From Candidatus Micrarchaeia archaeon (GTDB lineage Archaea; Micrarchaeota; Micrarchaeia; CAILAH01), in contig JAVYLZ010000001.1 of assembly GCA_038740245.1 (NCBI GenBank), positions 29,375-64,844 on the forward strand: a stretch of 35,470 nt of DNA, written 5' to 3'. Position numbers and translations under genes: made by a program. Of this stretch, positions 18,834-35,396 are shown in pieces. Positions within the stretch are counted from its first letter, which is position 1. Every line of letters starts with the position of its first letter. A model generated the notes under the pieces. It was not told the origin of the DNA. It worked only from the letters and a program-made list of their open reading frames with translations, and searched no databases.

Positions 18834-18980
18834 AAAGTTAGCTCGCAATTGCTGGTTTTAATCAGTATGCGGCCGTGTTTCCAGTATTTGTTGTCCAGGA
18901 TATATTCTGACATGCCACGCCAAGAAGACTGGAGTTCCCCCAGTATGAAAATTTATATTATTTCCAGTAAATACGGAGTT

Positions 18981-21900
18981 ATGAGGCAGCAGTTCCTATT
19001 GCTGTTATTGTTAGGGTCTGTGTGGGCCTGCGTTGATCTCTCAGAGCCAGGGACATGGGCTGGGAACATCGTTAATGTTTCCCCAAGCAACAAGTCTTTT
19101 TATGTTGTAAATAATACCACTTTATGCAGGCAGGACATTACAATCCCTACCGTACACCCCCTTTTCATAGTAAACCAAAGCAATACCGTGATTGACCTTA
19201 ACGGCTCAACACTGCGCGGTACCGGTCTGGGGAATGGAGTGTTAAGCCGTTATAACGGCACAGTAATTAGGAATGGCGTATTCAGAGACTTCTCAAATGC
19301 AATCGGCATATTTGATATAGACGAAAATAATAGGGACCTTTATTGGTCGTATTCTGAGAATCCAGGCAGTACTGCAGATGCTGCAAATATTGCGTTCGTT
19401 GATCCCGATGGGAACTATATAGTTGGTGGATATGAATCATCCAGTGGCAATAATGCGTGGTTTGTGAAAAAATTTTCCCCGGATGGGGATCAAATTTTCA
19501 ATTTTAGTTACAATCCGAGTACCCTAAGCGATATATTGTTTGGAGGTTGCGTTGATTCTGCTGAGAACTATATCTTTTCCGGCGGTGATACTTCCACAGG
19601 CAATATGCAATGGAGAATTATGAAGTTGTCTGCGGATGGTTCAACCCTCTGGTCACGAGCGTATGACATAAGTTCAGGTAACGACTATGCAGCTTCAATT
19701 GCAGTTGATGGGGATGGGAACTATGTGGCTGCCGGCATAGATCGCGTGCCAGGCAATTTCCAAATGAGGGTTATGAAGATTTCACCCAGTGGCGATTCTA
19801 TTTGGAACTGGACCCTAAACCCAAGCTCCGGGCAGGATTATTTAACTGCAGTTGCAGTTGATCCCGCAGGTGACTATATAGTTGGGGGATATGATAATAC
19901 ACCGGGCAACGCACAGTGGCGCGTTGTAAAAATCTCCCCAAATGGAACTGCCCTATGGAACTGGACCCAGAACCCAAGCGCTGGCTTTGATGCTCTTAAC
20001 TACATAACTGTAGATCTTGAAGGGAGCTATGTTGCAGTGGGATATGATTATTCCCTAGGCAATGCACAGTGGCGCGTTGTAAAAATCTCCCCAAATGGAA
20101 CTGCCCTATGGAACTGGACCCAAAACCCAAGCGCTGGCTTTGATTCTTTAACTTCAGTTGCAATAGATGAGGACGGTAACTATATCATTTTGGGCTACGA
20201 CTTTGTTCTAGGGTATATGAGACCAGTTTTACTAGCGATATCGCCTAATGGTAACTTGCTATGGCAATTTTCAGTAAATACTGGCGGCGCTGGCCTTTTA
20301 TCCTCTGTGGTGGTCGACAGCGAGGGCAATTACCTGGTATGTGGTTATGATTCCATCCCTGGAAACGCGGAATTGTTTATTGCAAAGATTGGCACTGAAA
20401 AGAACGCCCTGTCAGGCATTTTGCTTCAAGACATCTCAATTTATGATTCTAATATGTCAACTTTTCTGTCATTGCCTAATGCGGATGCAACGGCAAACAA
20501 TCTCACATTGGGGTATAATGAAGAAGTGGGCGTTTTGCAATATGAATCCCTGGTTTCTATTGATAACGCGGTATCAAACAGTTACGGGGTTTTGCTAAGA
20601 CCGAATTTCATTTCAGTTAACAGCGGTTCAATCCCTTCTTTTGATGCCCCCGCTAGCATTATCCTCTACGCACCGTTGTGTACAGACCGTAGCGTATACA
20701 CAACTTATAAGGGACCGGGCTTCCCTCGGAGCAGCTCAGAAATAATAAGTTATGATGAGGTGTATATTCCATTAAGCTCTGAATGCAGGTCCCCCACCTC
20801 TTTTATGTTTGAGGTTGGTTCGTTTAGCGGCTATGCGTTGTCTTATGGTGGATGTATTGACCTCTCTGATAACCGGACTTGGGCCGAAAATAAAGTACAT
20901 GCGATAGGAAACGGTTCAATGCTGCATATACTGCGCAACATTACCCTATGCAGGCAGGACATTACAATCCCTACCGTACACCCCCTTTTCATAGTAAACC
21001 AAAGCAATACCGTGATTGACCTTAACGGCTCAACACTGCGCGGTACCGGTCTGGGGAAGGGGGTGTTAAGCCGTTATAACGGGACTGCTATTAGAAACGG
21101 AGTATTTGATAATTTTGGAAATGCGATAAGCATATACGACATAGACGATGGTTCACCCACAGTTGATTTCAAATTGAATTTTACAGATGGTGCGATTTTC
21201 TCAGTGGATGTTGACCAGGACGGAAATTATGTAATAGGTGGCGCATATAATTTCAGTTCTGGCAATCCTGGCCTTTATGTTGCGAAGATGCTTCCAAATG
21301 GCAGCATTGTTTGGGAATGGAAAAGGGGACCTTCCGGCGCGCAGAATTCAATATTGGATGTAGCAATTGATCAGGACGGCAGTTGCATCGCCGTAGGGTT
21401 TGATTCAGCCTCTGGTAGCCAGCGGATGTTTGCTGTTAAGCTTTATGCCAATGGCTCTGAGGGATGGACTTGGGGCAAAGATATTAGTCCAAATGCCGAT
21501 TATGCCACTTCCGTTGCAGTTGATCGCGATGGGAATTATATCTTAGCCGGGATGGATTACTTATCAGGCAGGTATGGTATGAGGGCGATTAAGCTTAGCA
21601 GCAGCGGTTCAGAGCTTTGGAATTGGAGTTTTATTGGTCCACTTGGGAATTATGAAGCTTATGATGTGGCGGTTGATTCGGATAACAACTATATGATAGT
21701 TGGATCAGGGTATAATAGCTCTTTGGGAAATTATGAGATGAGGGCTGTTAAATTAAGCGGGGGAGGAGATACCCTGTTTAATGTTACAATTAATCCGACC
21801 GCAGGATACAACATATTATATTCCGTGGCAGTTGACCAGGATGGTAACTATGTTTGTGTCGGGGTTGCAGATGATGAAGGCGTATTAGTTAAGCTTTATC

Positions 21901-23687
21901 CAAATGGAAGCCTGATCTATATGGGATCTTATGATGTTATGGCCGGAGATGAACAACTTGTTTCGGTTGCAGTGGATCAAGATAACAACTATGTTCTTGG
22001 TGGCGATGGTTGGTCTTCTTCTGGCAACAATGAATGGTTCATCATAAAAACCTTGAAAAATGGGAGAGAGTTGTTTAGTTCTCCCCAGAACTTTGCCCCG
22101 GATGACGATTTTATTAGTAAAGTTGCAGTGGATTTCAACGGTGACATAATTGCAGTTGGGGATGGGACAGACTCTAGCAGCCAGTTTATGGAAGTGTTGA
22201 AGCTTAAAACAAATAAACACAGTCTCTCAGGAGTTTTATTGTCCAACGTTTCGATTTATGACTCAAATATGTCTACGTTTTTGGCTCTGCCCAGCGCAAA
22301 CGCAGAACTAATAAACACGATTGTGGGGTACAATGAAACGGCAGGCAAAGTAAGGTATTCTTCTGTTCCAGCAGCTGGCGGGTTGTTGGCAAATAATATG
22401 ACTATTCTGTTGCGCCCTGAGTTTGTATCACTTGATGAAACTCAAGTTCCATCATTTAGCACCAATGCAGAGATAACACTCTACGTGCCAAACTGCTCAA
22501 CTCCAAATAAGTATGCAGTATACCGATTGGCAGGATTCCCGCAAAGCAGGGATGAAATAATTGCTACTGGAAGCGTTTACTCTTCTACAAGCAAGGTTTG
22601 CCAATCAGAATCTTTGCTTGCATTTGGGGTTACCTCGTTTAGCGGCTATTCTCTCAATGAAACAATAGATGCGCCTCAACCACCCAGTGGAGGATCCGGG
22701 GGGACCAGCAGGAGGCATCTTCTTAGGGTAGCCCCCATAGAGAAGCAATACGTGAGAGTTAATGAGCCGCTATTGCTGCAAGTAACGATTGAAAATACAG
22801 GGGATTATACAGAAAGAAAAATCTCAGTTGGTTTAGAGCCTCAGGATTACATTGTGGCAGCTAATTCAACAATATACTCGCTTGAAAGTGGATATTCGGC
22901 CAATTCCTCGATTGCAATTACCGGTCTTAAGCCAGGCGAATATCTGCTTCGCATTATCGTGAGTAGTGAGAGTGGAGCGGGTGATGAGGCTGGACTTGAG
23001 CTATCGGTGCTTCCGCAGTGCAGTTCAGATTTTCAGTGCAAGTCGGATGAGTATTGCGACGAAGGAGTTTGTTCAAAGCTGAAATGCGAAAAGGGGAGAA
23101 TAGAAAATAACAGGTGCGTATACTATGAATGCATTATGGACTCTGATTGCAGTGGGGGCGGCAGATGCATTGAACACAAATGCATTGAGATAAATTGCAG
23201 CCGCTTTGAGAAGATAGTGGCAAATGAATGCCAACCTCTTAAAGCTGAGATCGGCTTATCGGCAAGCAGTGTAACGGTTGGCGATGATTTTGTAGTGTTT
23301 GTGCTAATAGACGGTGTAAAAACAGCTGGTGTCCCCCTCCTTGTCAAATATCCAGATGGATCTATTGAAAGAATCATTTCAGAACCAGAAGGGGCAAGAG
23401 TACGTGCATTAAATGCAGGCATTTATGTATTTTCAATTGAGGAACTTCCAGAGCATACCAAAAAAGCATATGCGTATGAATTGCCTGCGATAACACCAGA
23501 GCCCGTTTCTGAAACCGTTTCTACGCAAGTACAAACGCCGCAGCCAAAATGCTGCCTTATTGGGATTTGTTTAGAGCTGTTTGGTGTATGCTGGTATTAT
23601 TGGGTATTCGCCGCAATTGCAACACTAGTTGTATTAAGGCTGGTGCTTAAGCAAAATAAAAAGTTGCAAAAATCAAGAAAATACTAG
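18981..23687 (+). CDS. Very large membrane-anchored surface protein: two duplicated modules with beta-propeller-like repeats, Cys-rich EGF-like region, C-terminal TM anchor
   Basis: Signal peptide from ATG 18981; ~51-aa repeats SVAVD.DGNY...G.D; C..D..C repeats; CC..GIC...FGVCWYYW TM tail followed by a basic end. Confidence 0.8.
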   Translation: MRQQFLLLLLLGSVWACVDLSEPGTWAGNIVNVSPSNKSFYVVNNTTLCRQDITIPTVHPLFIVNQSNTVIDLNGSTLRGTGLGNGVLSRYNGTVIRNGVFRDFSNAIGIFDIDENNRDLYWSYSENPGSTADAANIAFVDPDGNYIVGGYESSSGNNAWFVKKFSPDGDQIFNFSYNPSTLSDILFGGCVDSAENYIFSGGDTSTGNMQWRIMKLSADGSTLWSRAYDISSGNDYAASIAVDGDGNYVAAGIDRVPGNFQMRVMKISPSGDSIWNWTLNPSSGQDYLTAVAVDPAGDYIVGGYDNTPGNAQWRVVKISPNGTALWNWTQNPSAGFDALNYITVDLEGSYVAVGYDYSLGNAQWRVVKISPNGTALWNWTQNPSAGFDSLTSVAIDEDGNYIILGYDFVLGYMRPVLLAISPNGNLLWQFSVNTGGAGLLSSVVVDSEGNYLVCGYDSIPGNAELFIAKIGTEKNALSGILLQDISIYDSNMSTFLSLPNADATANNLTLGYNEEVGVLQYESLVSIDNAVSNSYGVLLRPNFISVNSGSIPSFDAPASIILYAPLCTDRSVYTTYKGPGFPRSSSEIISYDEVYIPLSSECRSPTSFMFEVGSFSGYALSYGGCIDLSDNRTWAENKVHAIGNGSMLHILRNITLCRQDITIPTVHPLFIVNQSNTVIDLNGSTLRGTGLGKGVLSRYNGTAIRNGVFDNFGNAISIYDIDDGSPTVDFKLNFTDGAIFSVDVDQDGNYVIGGAYNFSSGNPGLYVAKMLPNGSIVWEWKRGPSGAQNSILDVAIDQDGSCIAVGFDSASGSQRMFAVKLYANGSEGWTWGKDISPNADYATSVAVDRDGNYILAGMDYLSGRYGMRAIKLSSSGSELWNWSFIGPLGNYEAYDVAVDSDNNYMIVGSGYNSSLGNYEMRAVKLSGGGDTLFNVTINPTAGYNILYSVAVDQDGNYVCVGVADDEGVLVKLYPNGSLIYMGSYDVMAGDEQLVSVAVDQDNNYVLGGDGWSSSGNNEWFIIKTLKNGRELFSSPQNFAPDDDFISKVAVDFNGDIIAVGDGTDSSSQFMEVLKLKTNKHSLSGVLLSNVSIYDSNMSTFLALPSANAELINTIVGYNETAGKVRYSSVPAAGGLLANNMTILLRPEFVSLDETQVPSFSTNAEITLYVPNCSTPNKYAVYRLAGFPQSRDEIIATGSVYSSTSKVCQSESLLAFGVTSFSGYSLNETIDAPQPPSGGSGGTSRRHLLRVAPIEKQYVRVNEPLLLQVTIENTGDYTERKISVGLEPQDYIVAANSTIYSLESGYSANSSIAITGLKPGEYLLRIIVSSESGAGDEAGLELSVLPQCSSDFQCKSDEYCDEGVCSKLKCEKGRIENNRCVYYECIMDSDCSGGGRCIEHKCIEINCSRFEKIVANECQPLKAEIGLSASSVTVGDDFVVFVLIDGVKTAGVPLLVKYPDGSIERIISEPEGARVRALNAGIYVFSIEELPEHTKKAYAYELPAITPEPVSETVSTQVQTPQPKCCLIGICLELFGVCWYYWVFAAIATLVVLRLVLKQNKKLQKSRKY
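19123..21058 (+). repeat. Identical 112-bp direct repeat pair (19123-19234 and 20947-21058) inside the large surface protein gene
   Basis: TATGCAGGCAGGACATTACAATCCCTACC...ACCGGTCTGGGGAA reads identically at both sites. Confidence 0.9.
19905..20144 (+). repeat. 87-bp near-identical repeat pair (19905-19991 and 20058-20144; offset 153 bp)
   Basis: GGCAAYGCACAGTGGCGCGTTGTAAAAATCTCC...GCTGGCTTTGAT with two synonymous mismatches. Confidence 0.9.
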
Positions 23688-25167: not shown

Positions 25168-25244
25168 AGTACCACTCCATTTCAATTAGGTATTGGCTGC
25201 ATTAAGCAGCCAACAAATTTAAACCTACTTAGCGAATGCTAATT

Positions 25245-26330
25245 ATGGAAGAGATTTACCTAGGCAAGACAGACCTGCTCATACAGAAGCTTGAAGAGGA
25301 GCTGAAGGGCCCTAAAACTGTCGTCGTCCAGATTGCACCTGCGGTCCGCGTAACGCTCGGTGAGATGTTCAGCCGCCCGTACGGCGAGGATAACACAGGG
25401 AAAGTGATAGGCGCGCTGCAGGCGCTGGGGTTCACGCACGTTGTTGATACCTCAATAGGCGCGGATGCGGCTTCATACTTGGAGGCGCGCGAGCTTGTCA
25501 AGTACCTTGAGAAAGGCGACAATTCAGTGTTCCCAAAGTTCAACTCCTGCTGCATCGGCTGGATGCTATACGTAAAGCGCAGGCACAAGGAGCTGCTGCA
25601 GAAAAGCTCAATATGCCCGGTGCTCTCGCCGCAGCTCGCAACCGGCGCGCTCGTAAAGCTCTATTCCTCAAAAAAGCTCGGCCTTACGCCAGACGACATA
25701 ATCGTTGTTTCAATAATGCCCTGCACGATGAAGAAGGAGGAGGCGCTTGAGCGCTCCCGCGAGGGCCGGCGCCACGTTGACTATGTGATGACCACGGTTG
25801 AGCTTGCCGAGTGGATGAAGAAGCGTGGCATTGATTTCAATTCGGTTAAGGAAGGCTCGCTCAGCCCAATACTGCCCGTCCCCTCACGTCTTGGCGTGGG
25901 GTTCGGCGCAACCGGAGGCGTGTCAGAATCAATAATGGAGACGGCTGCGCATTTCTTGGGCGAGCGCCCGGTGCTCGCGGACCTGCGCAACGACGACCAG
26001 ATATACAGGAAAACCTACCGCATAGGGAAATATGAAGTGAAAATGGCAAAGGTGTTCGGATTCAGGAACCTTGAGGCGGTGCTCAAGGAGATTGAAGGCG
26101 GTAAGTTCTACCATTTTGTAGAGGTTATGCAGTGCGAGTACGGCTGCGTTGGCGGGCCTGGCCAGCCGCAAGCGTCCAGCGAGCAGATAAAGCTGAGGGC
26201 GGCAGGCATGCGCGGGGCATCTATAAAAGCAAAGGCAAACGATGTGCTTGACACCCCGTCACTTAAGGAGATAATTGATGAGGTTCTGGGTGTGCAGGGC
26301 GAGTGCACGCTTAATTTCTCTTGGATGTAA
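25245..26330 (+). CDS. hydA: Minimal (H-domain-only) [FeFe] hydrogenase
   Basis: VQIAPAVRV, P1-like FNSCCIGW, SPQ, P2 IMPCTMKKEE, FGATGGV, P3 EVMQCEYGCVGGPGQP. No N-terminal ferredoxin domains. Start could also be 25236. Confidence 0.9.
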   Translation: MEEIYLGKTDLLIQKLEEELKGPKTVVVQIAPAVRVTLGEMFSRPYGEDNTGKVIGALQALGFTHVVDTSIGADAASYLEARELVKYLEKGDNSVFPKFNSCCIGWMLYVKRRHKELLQKSSICPVLSPQLATGALVKLYSSKKLGLTPDDIIVVSIMPCTMKKEEALERSREGRRHVDYVMTTVELAEWMKKRGIDFNSVKEGSLSPILPVPSRLGVGFGATGGVSESIMETAAHFLGERPVLADLRNDDQIYRKTYRIGKYEVKMAKVFGFRNLEAVLKEIEGGKFYHFVEVMQCEYGCVGGPGQPQASSEQIKLRAAGMRGASIKAKANDVLDTPSLKEIIDEVLGVQGECTLNFSWM

Positions 26331-27443: not shown

Positions 27444-28034
27444 CTACACTCTCTTGCAAATGTTATAGAAACCGCAGTCCGCGCACTTTTTTAGGTAATC
27501 AGCGGCCTCAGGCATCTCCTCTGTTTTGATGGTTTCTCGCATTGAGCTTAGCACAGCCAAAAATTCCGCATCAGAATAGGCCCCCACCCTCACTTTGATT
27601 AGTCGCTTATCTTTCAAGTATTTTACATATGCACAATATATTTGCAATCCTAAGACTTTTCTCACGAGATATGCCTCTGCAAATAACTGGAATTTTTGGG
27701 TCCGGTATAACATTCGCGGTGCAAATGAATCCTTTGCCTGCAATACGTACGCAGAATTGTTCTTGGTATCAATCATAAGGCAGTCCAGAACAGTCCTGAA
27801 CCCGCTATCACTATCCTCAAGAAATACATCATACTTTTTTTCGTAACCCCTAAATTCATCGGCAATCATTGCCCGCTTTGAATTCGTGTTGAATTTTTTG
27901 TGGAACTCTCTGCCCCTGTATTCTTTAACTGTGGTTGCTTGTGGTATATGAAGTACACGTTCAAAATACAGTATGCGGGGGCAATAAATGTAATTCATCA
28001 GGTCTCGCACGGTAAAATACTGTTCCCAATTCAT
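27444..28034 (-). CDS. cas4: CRISPR-associated Cas4
   Basis: YCPR N-terminal Cys, G..FH, QLFAEAYL, C-terminal KCADCGFYNIC Fe-S motif. Adjacent to cas2. Confidence 0.9.
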   Translation of the reverse strand: MNWEQYFTVRDLMNYIYCPRILYFERVLHIPQATTVKEYRGREFHKKFNTNSKRAMIADEFRGYEKKYDVFLEDSDSGFRTVLDCLMIDTKNNSAYVLQAKDSFAPRMLYRTQKFQLFAEAYLVRKVLGLQIYCAYVKYLKDKRLIKVRVGAYSDAEFLAVLSSMRETIKTEEMPEAADYLKKCADCGFYNICKRV

Positions 28035-28321
28035 TATTCCACCAGATAAAAGTCTTTTTCACGTACACGCTCCTCATCAAGGAACCCAACTATGATTTTG
28101 TTGTGCATACATCCTTCACAAGCAGGTATGAGAAATGCCACGTCAGTTTCTTTATTTAGTGCGTCTTCTATCTCAGATCCAAGCATTTCAGCCTTATTTT
28201 TCGAGAGTGTTCCTAAAAAAGCACTCTTTTGAACACGCAAAAGCCCATAGTTCTTACAAAGCTTAACGACATAATTTCTAACCTTAGTTTCACTAATGTC
28301 ATATATAACCCAGTAGTTCAT
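28034..28321 (-). CDS. cas2: CRISPR-associated Cas2
   Basis: VIYDISE..VR...K.CKNYGL.RVQKSAFLG, C..C. Confidence 0.95.
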   Translation of the reverse strand: MNYWVIYDISETKVRNYVVKLCKNYGLLRVQKSAFLGTLSKNKAEMLGSEIEDALNKETDVAFLIPACEGCMHNKIIVGFLDEERVREKDFYLVE

Positions 28322-28325
28322 CTCA

Positions 28326-29303
28326 TCACCATTTGTGCACAAACGCCCTGAACTTGTAGTTATCATCAGTAAGCGCTCTCGCAATATTTCGCGATTGCCT
28401 AAGAATAAGATCCTTTATTGATGCGCGCCTACCCTCAAATGAGATTTCAGTAGTAAGCCGCTTAAGTACCTCACTCAATATCTTATCGCGACCGCTTTTT
28501 GAAAGCCTACCGCCTTCAAAATCTTCTTCGGTTGCCATCTTTCTTGAGAAAATAGTTATAACCGCACGATCGACTATAACCGGCCTAAAGTTTTCTATCA
28601 GATCAAGAACCATTGAGGGTTTTCCATAGCGATCTTTGTGATAAAAACCTAAATAGGGATCTAGACCTGAGATAATACATGCCCGCTCCACTTCGGAATA
28701 CAATATACCGTATCCGTAGTTAAGGAAAGCATTTGTCAAATTATCTCCTTTTTTATCCCTATTCCCAAGAGGCATTAATTCAGATAGTGCATCCCAATAT
28801 AAGCTGCCACAGTAGCCCTCAATCCCCAGTAAAGTTTCACCCACTTTAGCAAGGTTCAGTTCTAACAGATCTATCTTCTCAACCTGTGAAATTATTATAT
28901 TGGCGTTTCGAGTGACTTTCTCATTTGGTCTTTCCTTGGCAAGTGCCTTAAGGAGGTATGCCTGGTTTTTCACTTTTGCGTCGATTATTGATTTGATTAT
29001 TCGTGCGCCGGTTGGTGTTGCACTTGCCTCAAGCTGTTTTTTCCGTATTAGGGTCGTGCCACCCAGTTTACACGGGTATGTTCTCGCAAGCGGTGTACCT
29101 CTCCAGTCAAGGTAAGTAATATCTATATCGTGCTCCATCGCAAGCTCGATCGCACCCATGGAAATTGATGAAGCCCTTGCAATTAAAATTTGCTCTACCT
29201 TTTCAGCTGCAAATTCTTCCTCGGGCTTTTCAGGAATGCGCACGTAAAATCGTTCGGAGCGACGGCCTATGAAGGCGGCGTAGTCATTAATCACTAATTC
29301 CAT
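28326..29303 (-). CDS. cas1: CRISPR-associated Cas1
   Basis: LLGIEG, NAFLNYGYGILY, GLDPYLGFYH, SMVLDLIENFRPVIVDR. Confidence 0.97.
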   Translation of the reverse strand: MELVINDYAAFIGRRSERFYVRIPEKPEEEFAAEKVEQILIARASSISMGAIELAMEHDIDITYLDWRGTPLARTYPCKLGGTTLIRKKQLEASATPTGARIIKSIIDAKVKNQAYLLKALAKERPNEKVTRNANIIISQVEKIDLLELNLAKVGETLLGIEGYCGSLYWDALSELMPLGNRDKKGDNLTNAFLNYGYGILYSEVERACIISGLDPYLGFYHKDRYGKPSMVLDLIENFRPVIVDRAVITIFSRKMATEEDFEGGRLSKSGRDKILSEVLKRLTTEISFEGRRASIKDLILRQSRNIARALTDDNYKFRAFVHKW

Positions 29304-29354
29304 ATGGAAACATCAAATGCAAAAATTAAATACTCACTTATACTAAAGTATAAC
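29304..29354. promoter_or_regulatory. Divergent promoter region between cas1 and cas12f
   Basis: 51-bp AT-rich gap containing AATTAAAT and the inverted repeat TTATACT-AA-AGTATAA (29338-29353). Confidence 0.55.
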
Positions 29355-31187
29355 ATGCTCGCATTCAAGCTTAAGCTTAACCCGTCCTCAGAACAGCAGG
29401 CTCAGCTGGATTTAATATTTAGGAAGTGGGCGTATATGGCAAGCCGTGCCGCAAAGTTTGAAAAGAAGAGATGGAAGAAAGAAGTTGATTCAATGAGTTC
29501 AACTACCTCTGGTTTTGGGAAAACCCAGTTGGTCCACAAGATATTTGATGACATTGAGGCAGCCAAAAAGGGGATGGAGCACCAAAAACAGCGCCTGGAA
29601 TGGGGTTTGAGGAAAGACGAGCTACGGCTTCAGGATTACAAGTTGCTTATTGACGATGAATCTGCCAGGGAATATAAGCCCGGTGGCAGAGGGTCGTTTA
29701 GGATGGCCGGCAGGGGAATCGGGACTTATAAAACCTTGAAAGAATGGCAATCAGAGTACGAAAAGCAGGAGAGACGCATTTACAAAGTCAAGAAAACGCT
29801 TGACAAAATAACGCGTGTCTTGGAGGGGAAGCAACCGGTGCAGTTTAAGCCTACTAGAATAACGCTCTGGAATACAGTTTACTCTTTGGATTTCGCTAAT
29901 AAACTCCTAGAGCTTTCATTGCTTAAAGATTCAAAGATGTCAATTCCATTTGTTACCGCACCATATGCTTTAAGAGGCAAATCAAACAAAAATAGCTCAG
30001 AATTTATCGAAGAATCTTTGCTGAACTTCGTTAAGTTTGCACTGCACACTGGATATCTGTATGGGTTTTCATCATCGGAAAAAGCAAAATTGCGCTCGAA
30101 TAAGCCTGAATATGCTGAGAAAAAACTAAAAATAATCTCGTCAAAGCGTGATAAGATCAAGAATAAGTTTCCAAAATTCTTCAATAAGGTAATGAAGCGT
30201 GGGATCTCTCAAGAAGAGCAGGAAATCTTGCTTAAGGTATTAGATGATATAGTAGCCGGCAATGATGTTTCCACTAACAATGCTTACCAAAACCTGCTGG
30301 AACAAATGTCACGAAATATTCTTGCGGGTGATATTGAGTTTAGGCCGTTAAAATACCCAATATTAATTAGAAAGCCACTCCCCTCAAAAAAATACAAGAA
30401 GCTTAAAAACCTAAAGCCGCAAGAGTGGAAGTACTACCTTCAGCTTTCATATGAGCCATTCAGGCAGGGTACTGTTCCAGAAAAAACAATAATGGGCATC
30501 GATCGGGGTATAAGGCATTTGGTTGCCGTTTCAGTATTTGATCCGAAATCCGGTAAATTCATATTAAACAAGCTTATAGACAATCCCGTAAGGGGGTGGA
30601 AAATAAAGTTGCGTGCGCTTAAGGCTCATATCCGAAATAGGGAGCGACGGCTACGTGCCAAAAAAAATATCCATATTAAGGAAAATCAGGCAAAGAAAAG
30701 CCTAAGATCACTAAGAAATAAAATCAGAAATTATACCCACGAGATTTCACGTGTGATAGTGAATGATGCCAAAAGGTTAAACGCAGCAATAGTTTTTGAG
30801 GATCTTTTTGATGTAAAGCGCAGCGGTCGCAAAAAAAGCAAGTTTACCAAGAACCTTGATTATACGCTTAGCCTATTTGACTATGGGCAAATATATCGTA
30901 TGATAAAGTACAAGGCAATCAAGGAGGGGATCCAAGTCTATAAGGTAAAGCCAGATTACACAAGTCAAAGGTGCGCAAAGTGTCTTCTTACTGGATTTAG
31001 CCAAAGCACTTACATAAGGGGGGTGCCGCGTAAGGGAGACAAGCATAAAATAAACTCAAAGGTTGGAGTGTGCAAAAATTGTTGCGGATCAGGCAAAGAT
31101 TACACTATTGACGCAGACCTGAATGCTGCACGTGTGATCGCCCTTTGCAAATTCAAAAACCTTAATAATCCTCAGCCAGATAATTAA
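29355..31187 (+). CDS. cas12f: Type V-F effector nuclease, Cas12f2 (Cas14b)-like, ~610 aa
   Basis: N-term MLAFKLKLNP..EQ...LD..F.KWA; FKPTRITL; KYPILIRKP; EWKYYLQ; RuvC-I MGIDRG, RuvC-II VFEDL, Zn-finger TSQRCAKC...CKNC, RuvC-III IDADLNAARVIA. Flanked by cas1/2/4 and an array. Confidence 0.92.
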   Translation: MLAFKLKLNPSSEQQAQLDLIFRKWAYMASRAAKFEKKRWKKEVDSMSSTTSGFGKTQLVHKIFDDIEAAKKGMEHQKQRLEWGLRKDELRLQDYKLLIDDESAREYKPGGRGSFRMAGRGIGTYKTLKEWQSEYEKQERRIYKVKKTLDKITRVLEGKQPVQFKPTRITLWNTVYSLDFANKLLELSLLKDSKMSIPFVTAPYALRGKSNKNSSEFIEESLLNFVKFALHTGYLYGFSSSEKAKLRSNKPEYAEKKLKIISSKRDKIKNKFPKFFNKVMKRGISQEEQEILLKVLDDIVAGNDVSTNNAYQNLLEQMSRNILAGDIEFRPLKYPILIRKPLPSKKYKKLKNLKPQEWKYYLQLSYEPFRQGTVPEKTIMGIDRGIRHLVAVSVFDPKSGKFILNKLIDNPVRGWKIKLRALKAHIRNRERRLRAKKNIHIKENQAKKSLRSLRNKIRNYTHEISRVIVNDAKRLNAAIVFEDLFDVKRSGRKKSKFTKNLDYTLSLFDYGQIYRMIKYKAIKEGIQVYKVKPDYTSQRCAKCLLTGFSQSTYIRGVPRKGDKHKINSKVGVCKNCCGSGKDYTIDADLNAARVIALCKFKNLNNPQPDN

Positions 31188-31194
31188 TCATGCA

Positions 31195-31445
31195 GTACAC
31201 GCCAATGCGTGTACGGTGTTACACTACTAGGTCAGAGCGCTATATAGTGAGCGTAAAAAACCTGTGGATGCCATTCCCTATATGGGACGTGGCAGATATG
31301 GCCCGTTGCAGGCCACCTGGGTCCATAAGTTCCCGCATTGGGTTCTAACGGCCCGATTGCTCTTTGGTTCAAAGCTTAGCCGCTCGGTGGGTCTTTATAA
31401 ATGCTAATGCAATTTATGGTCCGCGTGCGGCGCTCTGCAATAAGT
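31195..31445 (+). ncRNA. Putative tracrRNA of the Cas12f system (ends approximate)
   Basis: Hairpin GTACACGC-CAAT-GCGTGTAC (31195-31214); loop-displayed GTTGCA (31305-31310) complementary to the repeat 3' end; TTGCTCTTTG (31357-31366) and GCTCTGCAAT (31432-31441) complementary to the middle and 5' end of the repeat. Confidence 0.75.
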
Positions 31446-31490
31446 GACTTTCTAGTGATGCATAAGCTCTAAAATAGTGCATTTTTGGCT

Positions 31491-31974
31491 ATTGCAGAGC
31501 CCGAATAGACAAAGAGTGAGATGCAACTTAAATATCGTGATGTGATAAGGGCGATTGGCTACTTTATGTAATTGCAGAGCCCGAATAGACAAAGAGTGAG
31601 ATGCAACACGGTGTTTGGACACCTATGGAAAGCAACCGTGCCCACAATTGCAGAGCCCGAATAGACAAAGAGTGAGATGCAACGGAGGTTTCCCCATCCA
31701 TATAGTAGCCTTGATAACTTATTGCAGAGCCCGAATAGACAAAGAGTGAGATGCAACCCAGCCGATTACTTCATCTGGTCATACATTAGGAGGATTGCAG
31801 AGCCCGAATAGACAAAGAGTGAGATGCAACCTCATCGGCAGTCTTGCTATGGGCGTAATAAGCATATTGCAGAGCCCGAATAGACAAAGAGTGAGATGCA
31901 ACTCGCCATGAGGTTACCTGATGACGTGCCAGTTTCGATTGCAGAGCCCGAATAGACAAAGAGTGAGATGCAAG
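31491..31974 (+). CRISPR. CRISPR array: 7 x 37-bp repeats ATTGCAGAGCCCGAATAGACAAAGAGTGAGATGCAAC, 6 spacers (43, 39, 37, 36, 35, 35 bp)
   Basis: Repeats start at 31491, 31571, 31647, 31721, 31794, 31866 and 31938. The last repeat ends ...GCAAG (degenerate trailer). The sequence resembles Cas14-type repeats. Confidence 0.99.
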
Positions 31975-31994
31975 TTGTATGTCGTGCGAGGGAA

Positions 31995-32602: not shown

Positions 32603-33169
32603 ATGGTTAGGATTGGTGAAACTATCGGCGATTTTGAAATGGATGCATTCCATAATGGCGACCTCAGGAAAATCAGGCTGTCTGATTACCGTGGGAAATG
32701 GCTTGTGCTGTTTTTCTATCCAGCGGATTTCACGTTTGTGTGCCCCACAGAATTGGGGGAGCTTGCGGATTATTATGATAGGATTAGGCAACTTGGTGCA
32801 GAGGTGATGAGTGTAAGCACTGATACGCATTACACTCACCTCGCGTGGCATATGAGCTCGCCACAGGTTAGCAAAGTTAAGTTCCCGATGCTGGCCGATC
32901 CTGCAGGTAAGCTTGGCAGGCATTTTGGTGTTTATATAGAAGATGAAGGGGTTACTTTGCGCGGAACGTTTATCATCAATCCTGAAGGTAAGCTTGTTGC
33001 TGCTGAAGTTAATGACAACAGCATAGGCAGGAGTGCAAAAGAGCTCCTTAGGAAGCTGCAGGCAGCAAAGCATGTGTATGAAAACGGCGGTGTTGTTGCG
33101 TGCCCCGCAAGCTGGGAGCCCGGCAAAAGCGACTTAAAGCCGAGTGCCGGTTTGGTAGGGAAGATTTAG
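32603..33169 (+). CDS. ahpC: 2-Cys peroxiredoxin (AhpC)
   Basis: FFYPADFTFVCPTE peroxidatic motif, RGTFII, GRS, ACPASW resolving Cys. Confidence 0.97.
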   Translation: MVRIGETIGDFEMDAFHNGDLRKIRLSDYRGKWLVLFFYPADFTFVCPTELGELADYYDRIRQLGAEVMSVSTDTHYTHLAWHMSSPQVSKVKFPMLADPAGKLGRHFGVYIEDEGVTLRGTFIINPEGKLVAAEVNDNSIGRSAKELLRKLQAAKHVYENGGVVACPASWEPGKSDLKPSAGLVGKI

Positions 33170-33207
33170 TTTTCTATTTTATTAACTTTAATAGCGCAAT
33201 TTTACAT

Positions 33208-33807
33208 ATGGCATACACACCTAAAAATTATGACGCGCTTCTGGGCACGGCTGGCCTGAGCGATACGCTATTGAGGAACCATTTCACGCTTTACAACGGC
33301 TACGTTGCCAACTTCAACAAGCTTGATGAAATGATAATGCAGATGGAGAAGGAGGGCAAATTTGGCACGCCTGAATATGCGGAATTGAACAGGCGGCTTG
33401 GCTGGGAGTTCAACGGCATGCGGCTGCACGAGCTTTACTTCGGCAACATGTGCGGGGGCGGCAGGCCGTTAAGCAGGGACGGCCAGCTGGCACAGCAGAT
33501 AAAAAAAGAGTGGGGCTCGCTGGAATTGTGGGAGAAGGATTTCCGTGCGATGGGTGCTATGCGCGGCATCGGCTGGGTAATACTTTACTATGACAATGCT
33601 GAGAAACGGCTGTTCAACGTGTGGATAAATGAGCATGACGTGGGCCATTTTGCGGGGTGCACGCCGCTATTAGTGATGGACGTGTTTGAGCACGCGTACA
33701 TGCTTGACTACGGCCTGAAGCGTGCCGATTACATTGAGGCATTTTTCAGGGCAATTGACTGGGGCGCGGTGGAAGCACGCCTTTCAGCCTGCAATTCACA
33801 TATATAA
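33208..33807 (+). CDS. sod: Fe/Mn superoxide dismutase
   Basis: NHFTLYNGYV, LHELYF, GIGW, MDVFEHAYMLDYG...YIEAFF..IDW. Confidence 0.95.
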   Translation: MAYTPKNYDALLGTAGLSDTLLRNHFTLYNGYVANFNKLDEMIMQMEKEGKFGTPEYAELNRRLGWEFNGMRLHELYFGNMCGGGRPLSRDGQLAQQIKKEWGSLELWEKDFRAMGAMRGIGWVILYYDNAEKRLFNVWINEHDVGHFAGCTPLLVMDVFEHAYMLDYGLKRADYIEAFFRAIDWGAVEARLSACNSHI

Positions 33808-33841
33808 TACTATATTGAGATTTGTTAGCAGGTGGATGTTT

Positions 33842-34369
33842 ATGAGTGACCTTTCAAATCTCGTTAAGGAGGCAACTTCGCGCAAGATGCCCGAATACAC
33901 GCCCGGCAAGGATGACCCCAACATAATTGAGGGGGGCGGTGATGCGCCTGAGGATGTGCCAACGCTGCCCAAATCTTCGCTGGGCAGTGTTAAGGTTGAG
34001 CTCCCTAAGAGCGGGTACAGGACAGGCCAGTCTGTTAAGGGCACCGTAACAGTTACACTTAAGGAGCCAAAAAAAGCAGAATCGCTGGTGGTTGTGCTGT
34101 GGGGCGAGAAGCGCGTTGCACTGCCATCCCATTTCAGGACACCCGGCGGCAACAACGACTCGCGCGTTGTGCGCGTGAGCGAGCGGTTTGCAGAGCTTAC
34201 AGGTGCACGCGAGCTTTCAACAGAGGAGAAGTTCCAGTTTGAGCTTCCGGTAGCAGCCCCTGTGCCGGACCTTGCAGCAAACTACAAGTGGTACGTCGGT
34301 GCATCTCTTATCCTGTGGCCAGACACTGAGATTGCGGATATGATTGAGATAAAAGTCGTTGATGCCTAG
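33842..34369 (+). CDS. Hypothetical protein with arrestin-N/SpoOM-like beta-sandwich
   Basis: Y.TGQSVKGTVTVTL..PKKA..L.V.LWGE...FQFELP pattern. Confidence 0.6.
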   Translation: MSDLSNLVKEATSRKMPEYTPGKDDPNIIEGGGDAPEDVPTLPKSSLGSVKVELPKSGYRTGQSVKGTVTVTLKEPKKAESLVVVLWGEKRVALPSHFRTPGGNNDSRVVRVSERFAELTGARELSTEEKFQFELPVAAPVPDLAANYKWYVGASLILWPDTEIADMIEIKVVDA

Positions 34370-34428
34370 TTTTATCATATTCTTTTAATCAAAAGAAGGA
34401 TAGCCCCGAGCGGATTTTCGTTTTGGCC

Positions 34429-34563
34429 TTTTTTTGGGGCCAAGCCCTTTTAGGCATCCCAAAAAGGGCGCCTTGTTTTTTTGGGGTCAAGCCCTTTTAG
34501 GCATCCCAAAAAGGGCGCCTTGTTTTTTTGGGGTCAAGCCCTTTTAGGCATCCCAAAAAGGGC
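34429..34563. repeat. 47-bp tandem repeat (~2.9 copies) inside the tRNA T-loop intron
   Basis: TTTTTTTGGGGTCAAGCCCTTTTAGGCATCCCAAAAAGGGCGCCTTG at 34429, 34476 and 34523 (partial), with one mismatch. Confidence 0.95.
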
Positions 34564-34596
34564 TGTTCGAACCGCTGTCTGGAGGTCTCTCCTGTG

Positions 34597-34675
34597 GGGC
34601 GCATCCGCCCCCACACCCCCGGTAATTTCGCTTACGCGAAATTGTTGGGTTGGGCGCATCCGCCCCCACACCCCC
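34597..34675. repeat. Two identical 24-bp GC-rich hairpin motifs inside the anticodon intron
   Basis: GGGCGCATCCGCCCCCACACCCCC at 34597-34620 and 34652-34675. Confidence 0.9.
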
Positions 34676-34859
34676 CTCAGTGAATTTGAGGTTGCGAAGG
34701 GCCTTGCAAACTGGCGTTTGCTGGCCACACGTGCAGAACACGTGTTGGACCGCAGGCTTCCTTCGTCCAGAGCCTCCCATCCTTGACCACTAGACGACGG
34801 GGCTATCAGCACACTTTAAGGCCATATCATTTTTAATTGTTGCTATTGAGTTTGTGGAC

Positions 34860-35396
34860 ATGTTTGCCAAAATTGCAAGGAAGCGGCGCAGTGTGCGCAA
34901 GTTTCTTGCCAGAGATGTGCCTGACAAGGTTGTTGAGGCAGTGCTCAGGGTTGCGATACAGGCGCCCAGCGCAATGAATAAGCAATCTTGGGAGTTTATT
35001 GTGGTGCGTGACCTTGAAACGAGGAGGCGGCTTTCACAGGCGAGCTTTATGCAAGGGTCGCTCGTGAGCGCTCCAGTGGTTATTGCTGTATGTGGCAACA
35101 CAAAAAGGGCAGGGGGCATCCCTATCGTCGGGCCCGGTGCGGAAGAGTTTGCAGCGACCGATGCCATCATTGCAGCCGCGTACATCCAGCTGGCGGCGCT
35201 GGACAAGAAGCTCGGAACGGTATGGGTGGGCGGGTTTGACAGGAAGCAGGTTGCGGCAATACTTGGCCTGCCGGATTATGTAAAGCCCGTTGCGCTAGTG
35301 CCGATGGGGTATCCCGCTGAGAAGCCAAAGCCGCACGGCCGCCTGCCGCTTGAGAAGGTGCTGCACACGGGGAGGTACGGGCAGCCCCAACGTTAA
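34860..35396 (+). CDS. Nitroreductase family protein
   Basis: RRSVRKF, APSAMNKQSWEFIVV, LGTVWVGGF, MGYP. Confidence 0.93.
   Translation: MFAKIARKRRSVRKFLARDVPDKVVEAVLRVAIQAPSAMNKQSWEFIVVRDLETRRRLSQASFMQGSLVSAPVVIAVCGNTKRAGGIPIVGPGAEEFAATDAIIAAAYIQLAALDKKLGTVWVGGFDRKQVAAILGLPDYVKPVALVPMGYPAEKPKPHGRLPLEKVLHTGRYGQPQR

Follow-up and report, generated by a model that had tools for sequence, protein, structure and literature searches.

Shared hairpin modules fill two long introns of the only tRNA-Gln(CUG) gene found in a Micrarchaeia archaeon genome

On its minus strand, at 34401-34804, the DNA analysed here (the window, 35,470 nt in all) carries a tRNA-Gln(CUG) sequence divided into three pieces. 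The locus raises two questions: can a tRNA gene that is mostly intron be a working gene, and where did its intron DNA come from? The sequence-only reading had proposed three exons (38, 21 and 14 nt) with introns at 37/38 and 59/60. The same exons, joined in silico, gave a 73-nt product that ARAGORN called as tRNA-Gln(CTG), with 7/7 acceptor, 5/5 anticodon and 5/5 T-stem pairs. Exon 1 (34767..34804, 38 nt) covers positions 1-37, ends at G37 and contains the acceptor 5' strand, the D arm and the anticodon CTG. Exon 2 (34566..34586, 21 nt) covers positions 38-59, and exon 3 (34401..34414, 14 nt) covers positions 60-73, with CCA not encoded. Intron 1 (34587..34766, 180 nt) lies at the canonical 37/38 position and intron 2 (34415..34565, 151 nt) at the T-loop position 59/60; both have hBH junctions. 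On the same strand, a TATA-like, AT-rich hexamer 32-33 nt ahead of +1 (34831..34837) is a putative promoter by pattern match only, and comparable motifs were seen at -22 to -40 in 21 of the 38 catalogued tRNA genes. A T-rich tract directly past the discriminator base (34390..34400) is a putative terminator. A sigma-70 promoter scan, which uses a model unsuited to archaea, gave nothing relevant.

The sequence-only reading had suggested that standard finders may miss such a gene, and both ARAGORN and Rfam missed the genomic copy. ARAGORN returned 0 genes on the window. Its intron mode called 13 genes in the whole genome, none on the contig of tRNA-Gln(CUG), and four of the 13 carried an anticodon at odds with our own catalogue. 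The Rfam search placed 10 tRNAs over the cut-off genome-wide, with tRNA-Gln(CUG) absent. Covariance models run against the region itself gave two sub-threshold microRNA chance matches only, and no group I or other described intron RNA. Two open reading frames that overlap the gene (34481-34786 and 34534-34812) had no Pfam match and were rejected.

The gene is flanked by an arrestin-like gene (33842-34369, a weak Pfam hit) and a divergent nitroreductase gene (34860-35396). The latter belongs to an oxidative-stress cluster around the tRNA (32603-35396), together with AhpC-like peroxiredoxin and Fe/Mn superoxide dismutase-like genes. A Type V CRISPR locus at 27444-31975 comprises cas4, a probable cas2, cas1 and seven 37-nt repeats; its effector (627 aa) is Cas12f2/TnpB-like, below the family cut-off, and a hairpin module was noted just ahead of the effector gene (about 29304-29333; contig-relative C1:29230-29258, outside the window). 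A link between the introns and the neighbouring CRISPR array was rejected: only two scattered 11-mers were common to any intron, and neither came from Gln(CUG). The window also encodes archaeal RadA and Orc1/Cdc6, a 364-aa [FeFe] hydrogenase group A-like protein (25236-26330; NCBIfam E 6e-76, below cut-off), and a 1612-aa protein with delta-60/SBBP-like repeats, likely a surface protein (18849-23687), whose gene contains a tandem repeat of 153-nt period at 19803-20202.

To place the gene among the other tRNA genes of the genome (G000, 81% complete), we used a three-anchor scan in which acceptor and T-stem anchors may be separated by long gaps. The scan returned 40 rows on the genome; three dinucleotide shuffles returned 2, 0 and 3, and no row among these had perfect stems. 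Removal of five longer versions that ended in downstream duplicated 3' ends, and addition of three ARAGORN-only genes, left a catalogue of 38 tRNA genes, no two with the same anticodon and a single Gln(CUG) among them. An intact second copy had been named by the sequence-only reading as one sign of a disrupted pseudo-tRNA, and none was found in the 81%-complete assembly. Once joined, 37 of the 38 genes passed ARAGORN; the exception, Val(TAC), has a further insert in its D loop.

Interruption was the rule in this genome. Introns of 22-287 nt (n=55) were found in 35 of the 38 genes: anticodon-loop introns in 30 genes (22-287 nt, median 74.5), 59/60 introns in 25 (36-198 nt, median 72) and introns at both sites in 20. 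Gln(UUG) is laid out like Gln(CUG), with two introns (124 and 131 nt), and tRNA-Ile(UAU) (G000:C3:4137-4420) has introns of 56 and 153 nt. Three further interrupted genes stand outside the catalogue counts: Leu(TAA) with 106/72 nt, a second Met(CAT) with 209/85 nt, and an Ile(GAT) cut by a contig end. Since 35 of 38 genes are interrupted and each anticodon has one gene, interrupted genes are the sole source for most codons. The median number of Rfam tRNA matches was 11 in nine genomes of the family vs 29 in 32 others of the class, and a congener genome that is 93% complete showed seven tRNAs by Rfam. In practice, tRNA counts for genomes of this kind are badly underestimated; a search approach for such introns is set out for tRNAscan-SE 2.0 in the available part of its description (PMC8450103). 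Three genomes of other families (G025, G029 and G038, 89-97% complete) gave only 7-12 Rfam tRNA matches and may hide similar long introns.

Both splice junctions of tRNA-Gln(CUG) have a bulge-helix layout, with a 4-bp central helix and putative cut sites that follow the second base in each 3-nt bulge. Junction 1 pairs CTCT with GGAG (three Watson-Crick pairs and one G-U, score 3.5/4) and junction 2 pairs TTCG with CGAA (4/4 pairs), reproducing the central helices and bulges first proposed. The exon-side helix is perfect, and the intron-side helix h' has 0 pairs at both junctions; the motifs are therefore classed as the relaxed hBH type, not strict hBHBh'. The earlier label, BHL-like, was loose, and hBH is more exact. 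Across the catalogue, the central helix scored at least 3.5/4 in 19 of 25 T-loop introns vs 0.6% of interior 4-mers. A score of at least 3 was reached in 22 of 30 anticodon introns vs 7%, a comparison that is partly circular because the score helped to pick the 37/38 parse. The central helix scored at most 2.5 in eight of the 30 catalogued anticodon-loop introns, for which 37/38 placement is assumed.

The predicted precursor fold was far more stable than those of shuffled sequences (z -7.5). Pair probabilities in the predicted ensemble were 0.87-1.0 for the acceptor stem, T stem and junction-2 helix (0.87-0.96 for the junction-2 central helix). The anticodon stem and junction-1 helix reached about 0.01 in the unconstrained 37°C fold, and forcing them cost 6.2 kcal/mol. 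Intron 1 is thus predicted to compete with the fold needed for its own splicing, a mild point against easy splicing.

Cleavage at non-canonical sites needs a broad-specificity endonuclease, and the enzyme encoded in a genome of the same genus fits that expectation. This full-length EndA of G002 (386 aa) matches 4FZ2, the ARMAN-2 epsilon2 EndA, over residues 10-386 (E 5e-125). It keeps K161, Y236, H251 and K282, the ASL lysine and the Tyr-His-Lys triad, which are required in the ARMAN-2 enzyme according to the available text of Hirata et al. 2012 (PMC3488258). The EndA family was present in 30 of 30 relatives searched, including 8/8 family members; in the 81%-complete assembly itself it was not found, either by the Pfam model or with a relative's protein. 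The RtcB ligase is encoded in the genome (G000:C6:25708-27012, E 3e-175). Intron position, junction motif and enzyme type are all known from other systems, and by analogy tRNA-Gln(CUG) is probably spliced in the same way. If so, the epsilon2 enzyme may tolerate multi-branched introns of 150-290 nt.

Comparison with other genomes showed how variable the introns are around a constant tRNA. We found 23 distinct Gln(CUG) loci, counted without two duplicate rows, one truncated locus, and non-Gln and doubtful parses: 14 were intronless, three had the 37/38 intron only, two the 59/60 intron only and four both, and all gave 73 nt. The ortholog L002, from another genus, is one base off the mature tRNA-Gln(CUG), a difference located in exon 1, and its T loop is uninterrupted. 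Long introns recurred in separately assembled relatives (250/78, 114/195 and 125/157 nt, for example), and intron interiors turned over between close relatives. A locus from a genome titled Aenigmatarchaeota (L052) has introns of 49 and 258 nt at the same two sites; long T-loop introns are therefore not confined to the family. The exon-1 pattern occurred in 19 GTDB records: seven Micrarchaeota/Micrarchaeia, four Aenigmatarchaeota and eight others. Taken with the EndA match, this makes Micrarchaeota the likely lineage of the genome.

The interiors of the two introns consist of shared, duplicated hairpin modules, which the sequence-only reading had overlooked, and this is what the locus adds to the known intron position and enzyme. 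Intron 2 is largely a tandem array (34429..34563, minus strand) of 47 nt x 2.9 copies with 98% matches, each unit a hairpin. Single copies of the same hairpin family form the 45-49-nt introns of Val(GAC), Met, Gly(TCC), Pro(TGG) and two Leu genes, and one lies within a 5S rRNA gene. A comparable relation, again with a period of 47 nt, links the 149-nt intron of Glu(TTC) to the 55-nt Arg(CCT) intron, of which it is a threefold version. Internal exact repeats of at least 15 nt were found in 11 of the 55 introns, all among the 19 introns of at least 100 nt.

Intron 1 holds such modules too, all read on the minus strand. A hairpin cassette at its start (34690..34765) carries an additional insert, about 45 nt long and made of two hairpins. 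In empty or filled form the cassette also opens introns in genes for Arg, Leu, Met, Trp, Lys, Gly and Ile, it opens the orthologous introns of L002 and L004, and it has an intergenic relative at G000:C3:32437-32501 (85% over 65 nt). Its two-hairpin insert recurs in T-loop introns of Gly, Lys, Ile and Arg. Within the Ile(TAT) intron, empty and filled forms of the cassette stand in tandem with a 4-nt direct repeat, an arrangement seen for one module only. A GC-rich hairpin pair (34594..34675) consists of two 27-nt copies with a period of 55, flanking a second hairpin. A 62-nt piece (34588..34649) matches the tRNA-Arg(CCG) intron in its 3' part at every base (G000:C33:2051-2112, E 7e-27). It reaches up to the 3' splice site of intron 1; the mature exons of the two tRNAs are alike at 41 of 74 positions.

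Sharing of this kind extended through the genome and was mostly partial. A BLAST partner among the other introns was found for 30 of the 55; of the 30 pairs, 26 joined introns of the same site class and four were in opposite orientation. The T-loop introns of two Gly genes and a Lys gene were 93-95% identical over about 198 nt. In genome G001, the Gln(UUG) intron holds the intron-1 module reversed. Such inverted copies would favour a DNA-level process over simple reverse splicing.

From the anatomy of the gene, its uniqueness in the assembly, its orthologs, the repeats and their sharing, we infer, at a probability of roughly 0.85, a working single tRNA-Gln(CUG) gene with two protein-spliced introns that grew long from shared hairpin modules. 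In the expressed precursor, each intron end would pair four bases with the exon beside an intact tRNA stem. A three-unit epsilon2 endonuclease would cut both junctions, RtcB would join the exons and CCA would be added later. Because the enzyme reads the junctions only, intron interiors would be free to grow. Growth may have proceeded at the DNA level in three ways: by insertion of short hairpin modules dispersed through non-coding and stable-RNA DNA, by local tandem duplication (in intron 2, from one unit to three), and by copying of intron pieces between unrelated tRNA genes (the 62 nt in common with tRNA-Arg).

Hairpin modules also occur beyond introns: flush against tRNA 5' ends, after tRNA 3' ends, behind a protein gene and in intergenic clusters. 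At G000:C3:32100-32500 and C6:4850-5075, intergenic stretches several hundred bases long are made up of the same modules, one in 2.5 tandem copies. A search with the cassette motif gave 22 genome matches, vs 4, 0 and 2 in shuffles, and 17 of the 22 lay within 200 nt of catalogued tRNA genes, a zone that makes up 3.4% of the genome. In 11 of these 17 the hairpin end was no more than 1 nt from an exon edge, facing the exon (chance 0.014 per site); the edge cassettes were sense after 5' splice sites and antisense before +1 or a 3' splice site. Of the other five matches, one starts no more than 3 nt from the 3' end of the RNase P RNA. The RNase P RNA itself (G000:C1:5454-5801, minus strand; 68.6 bits, below the Rfam cut-off; L116) has an apparent hairpin-family insert near its 5' part.

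Ends of tRNA genes were themselves duplicated. Downstream 3'-end duplicates (11-50 nt, period 62-92) were seen in seven tRNA genes of G000 (C2:42805-42882, C3:28184-28280, C5:2695-2768, C26:258-350, C26:541-604, C34:2743-2824 and C40:5852-5914). Five of the seven begin exactly at position 60, and one of these belongs to a gene with no T-loop intron. The 5S rRNA gene (G000:C22:856-1023, equivalent to L057:457-624), 168 nt long, has a 52-nt hairpin insert of the intron-2 family in loop C, with three of four central-helix pairs by eye. The insert may be an excisable intron or an expansion segment. No other 5S insert was found at the loop C site among class genomes (135 of 141 had a 5S match), and archaeal 5S rRNA has a single named insertion site, different from this one, in the available part of PMC7812874. 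The only other long 5S rRNA among these matches (G120:C3:12256-12411, 156 nt; L115) is interrupted elsewhere, by about 40 nt of unrelated sequence.

These edge positions suggest another origin for the introns, one compatible with a functional gene: the cassette could be a site-directed mobile mini-element. Attached to processed stable RNAs at their ends, or to the ends of the corresponding genes, it would have seeded introns instead of falling at random into those already present. We regard this as possible though unlikely. The 11 flush copies, the copy at the RNase P RNA 3' end and the five duplicates starting at position 60 all speak for it. However, the motif was defined after the examples had been seen and its copies are related rather than independent, so that a binomial value of 4e-17 overstates the case; edge adjacency is a strong lead, not a clean test. 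Selection could also leave the same pattern, for a hairpin right past the bulge may protect the junction fold. Nor was a candidate mobilizing enzyme recovered: searches of the 81%-complete genome for Y1 transposase, tyrosine integrase and reverse transcriptase found none. Y1 transposases were found in none of the eight family members and in six of 41 genomes overall. Among possible donors, intron 1 had no match in plasmids or phages, and two exact hairpin patterns found 0 viral contigs.

A more specific version, which we consider doubtful, is that a protein-free cassette inserts flush at stable-RNA processing ends (tRNA +1, cut sites, position 60 and the RNase P RNA end), directed by RNA ends or by structure. 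It would seed and swell tRNA introns, and a sister hairpin would have made the possible 5S loop C intron. If this were true, the cassette would make visible one path by which archaeal introns arise.

Part of the intron length could instead be an artefact of assembly, through repeat expansion or through jumps between tRNA genes by way of shared pieces. The 135-nt array is close to short-read length, and its copy number of three comes from the assembly. We therefore looked at contigs from three DNA runs (X1, X2 and X3) of one study, which have a depth of about 3 and may include the source sample. A contig of X2 joins across 95 nt of the intron-2 array, as a one-copy form would, but contigs of X1 and X3 contain the junction between units and thus two copies or more. 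This suggests that the copy number of the array varies. The shared 62-nt piece is connected to exon 2 in contigs of X1 and X2 and to the Arg exon in a contig of X3. In L003 (1666-1967), hairpin modules past Gln exon 2, in the T-loop intron, lead into an apparent D-loop and anticodon part of tRNA-Val(UAC), a transition that looks like either an assembly jump via a shared repeat or real recombination. With the run contigs supporting both links of the 62-nt piece and long introns recurring in separately assembled relatives, we judge an artefact improbable.

The locus might also be a decaying pseudo-tRNA disrupted by repeats, its role taken by a compact Gln(CUG) gene in the unassembled fraction or by tRNA-Gln(UUG), which would then read both codons. 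The incompleteness of the assembly, the failure to find EndA in it and the predicted fold that disfavours junction 1 are what this reading has to offer. Against it, the exons carry no lesions and differ by one base from the ortholog in another genus, both splice helices are kept, and Gln(UUG) has a similar two-intron layout; the decay reading would also turn 35 of the 38 catalogued genes into pseudogenes. We consider decay very improbable. Some archaeal tRNA introns encode guide RNAs, and the stability of the precursor against shuffles would suit excised introns that act as structured guide or regulatory circles with hairpins kept for function, but this too is highly improbable given the lack of any Rfam family match, interiors that turn over among close relatives, introns absent from most orthologs, modules in both orientations and overlapping reading frames with no Pfam match.

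The locus, read as a working tRNA gene with introns grown from shared modules, has its closest known counterpart in ARMAN-2 (Ca. Micrarchaeum acidiphilum), in which pre-tRNA-Cys(GCA) has a 59/60 hBH intron that was cut in vitro by the epsilon2 EndA, as set out in the available part of Fujishima et al. 2011 (PMC3239211). The two systems are alike in the T-loop position, the relaxed hBH motif, the enzyme type (here in close kin), multi-intron tRNA genes and tRNA-Ile(UAU). They may differ in the repeat-built interiors, of which the available portions of PMC3239211 and PMC3488258 make no mention for ARMAN-2. Archaeal tRNA introns are 'relatively short (less than 100 nt)' in the accessible text of a review (PMC4033280), and those of Haloferax measure 31-103 nt in that of PMC7714728. 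By this review and Haloferax standard, introns of 151 and 180 nt are long; within their own genome they are ordinary. The sequence-only reading, which had called them unusually long, made too much of their rarity: 19 of the 55 catalogued introns here are at least 100 nt long, and a 59/60 hBH intron was already known.

Intron copies across different tRNA genes of one genome are known from Thermoproteales, where near-identical introns were read as DNA-level spread (available parts of PMC4090602 and PMC4033280). The present case is similar in that respect and differs in lineage and enzyme type. Sharing here is mostly modular and partial, with tandem duplication and some inversion, and copies also occur outside introns, in leaders, trailers, 5S rRNA and beside RNase P RNA. 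In Asgard archaea, 92-95% of tRNA genes are interrupted and many are missed by standard annotation (PMC11291895, available part); a high intron load, 35 of 38 genes here, is common to both. The accessible text of a 2026 Asgard preprint gives copying between tRNA types as 1.5% vs 28.3% in Thermoproteales and leaves the route of arrival open. Copying is plain in the present genome: whole-intron families at 80% identity include 7/55 introns counted by anticodon (12.7%) and 3/55 across amino acids (5.5%), figures obtained by a stricter global-identity procedure that is not the preprint's, and shared modules come in addition.

The modules also invite comparison with the short dispersed hairpins of bacterial REP/MITE-type repeats, which occur in both orientations, in tandem copies and with short flanking direct repeats. 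Dispersed palindromes in both orientations are found here too. In contrast to those repeats, no partner transposase was found in the search for Y1 enzymes, and copies cluster at the edges of stable-RNA genes, not between protein genes. A literature search, with most subscription journals outside it, gave no report of long tRNA introns built from repeats in Micrarchaeota. As a gene, the locus belongs to a class already known; the new part is its system of modular repeats that abut edges. Intermediate states occur together in one genome: empty and filled cassettes, one- and three-copy introns, pieces common to unrelated tRNAs and hairpins outside introns. These side-by-side states make the arrival of intron DNA in archaeal tRNA genes testable by population sequencing and cleavage assays.
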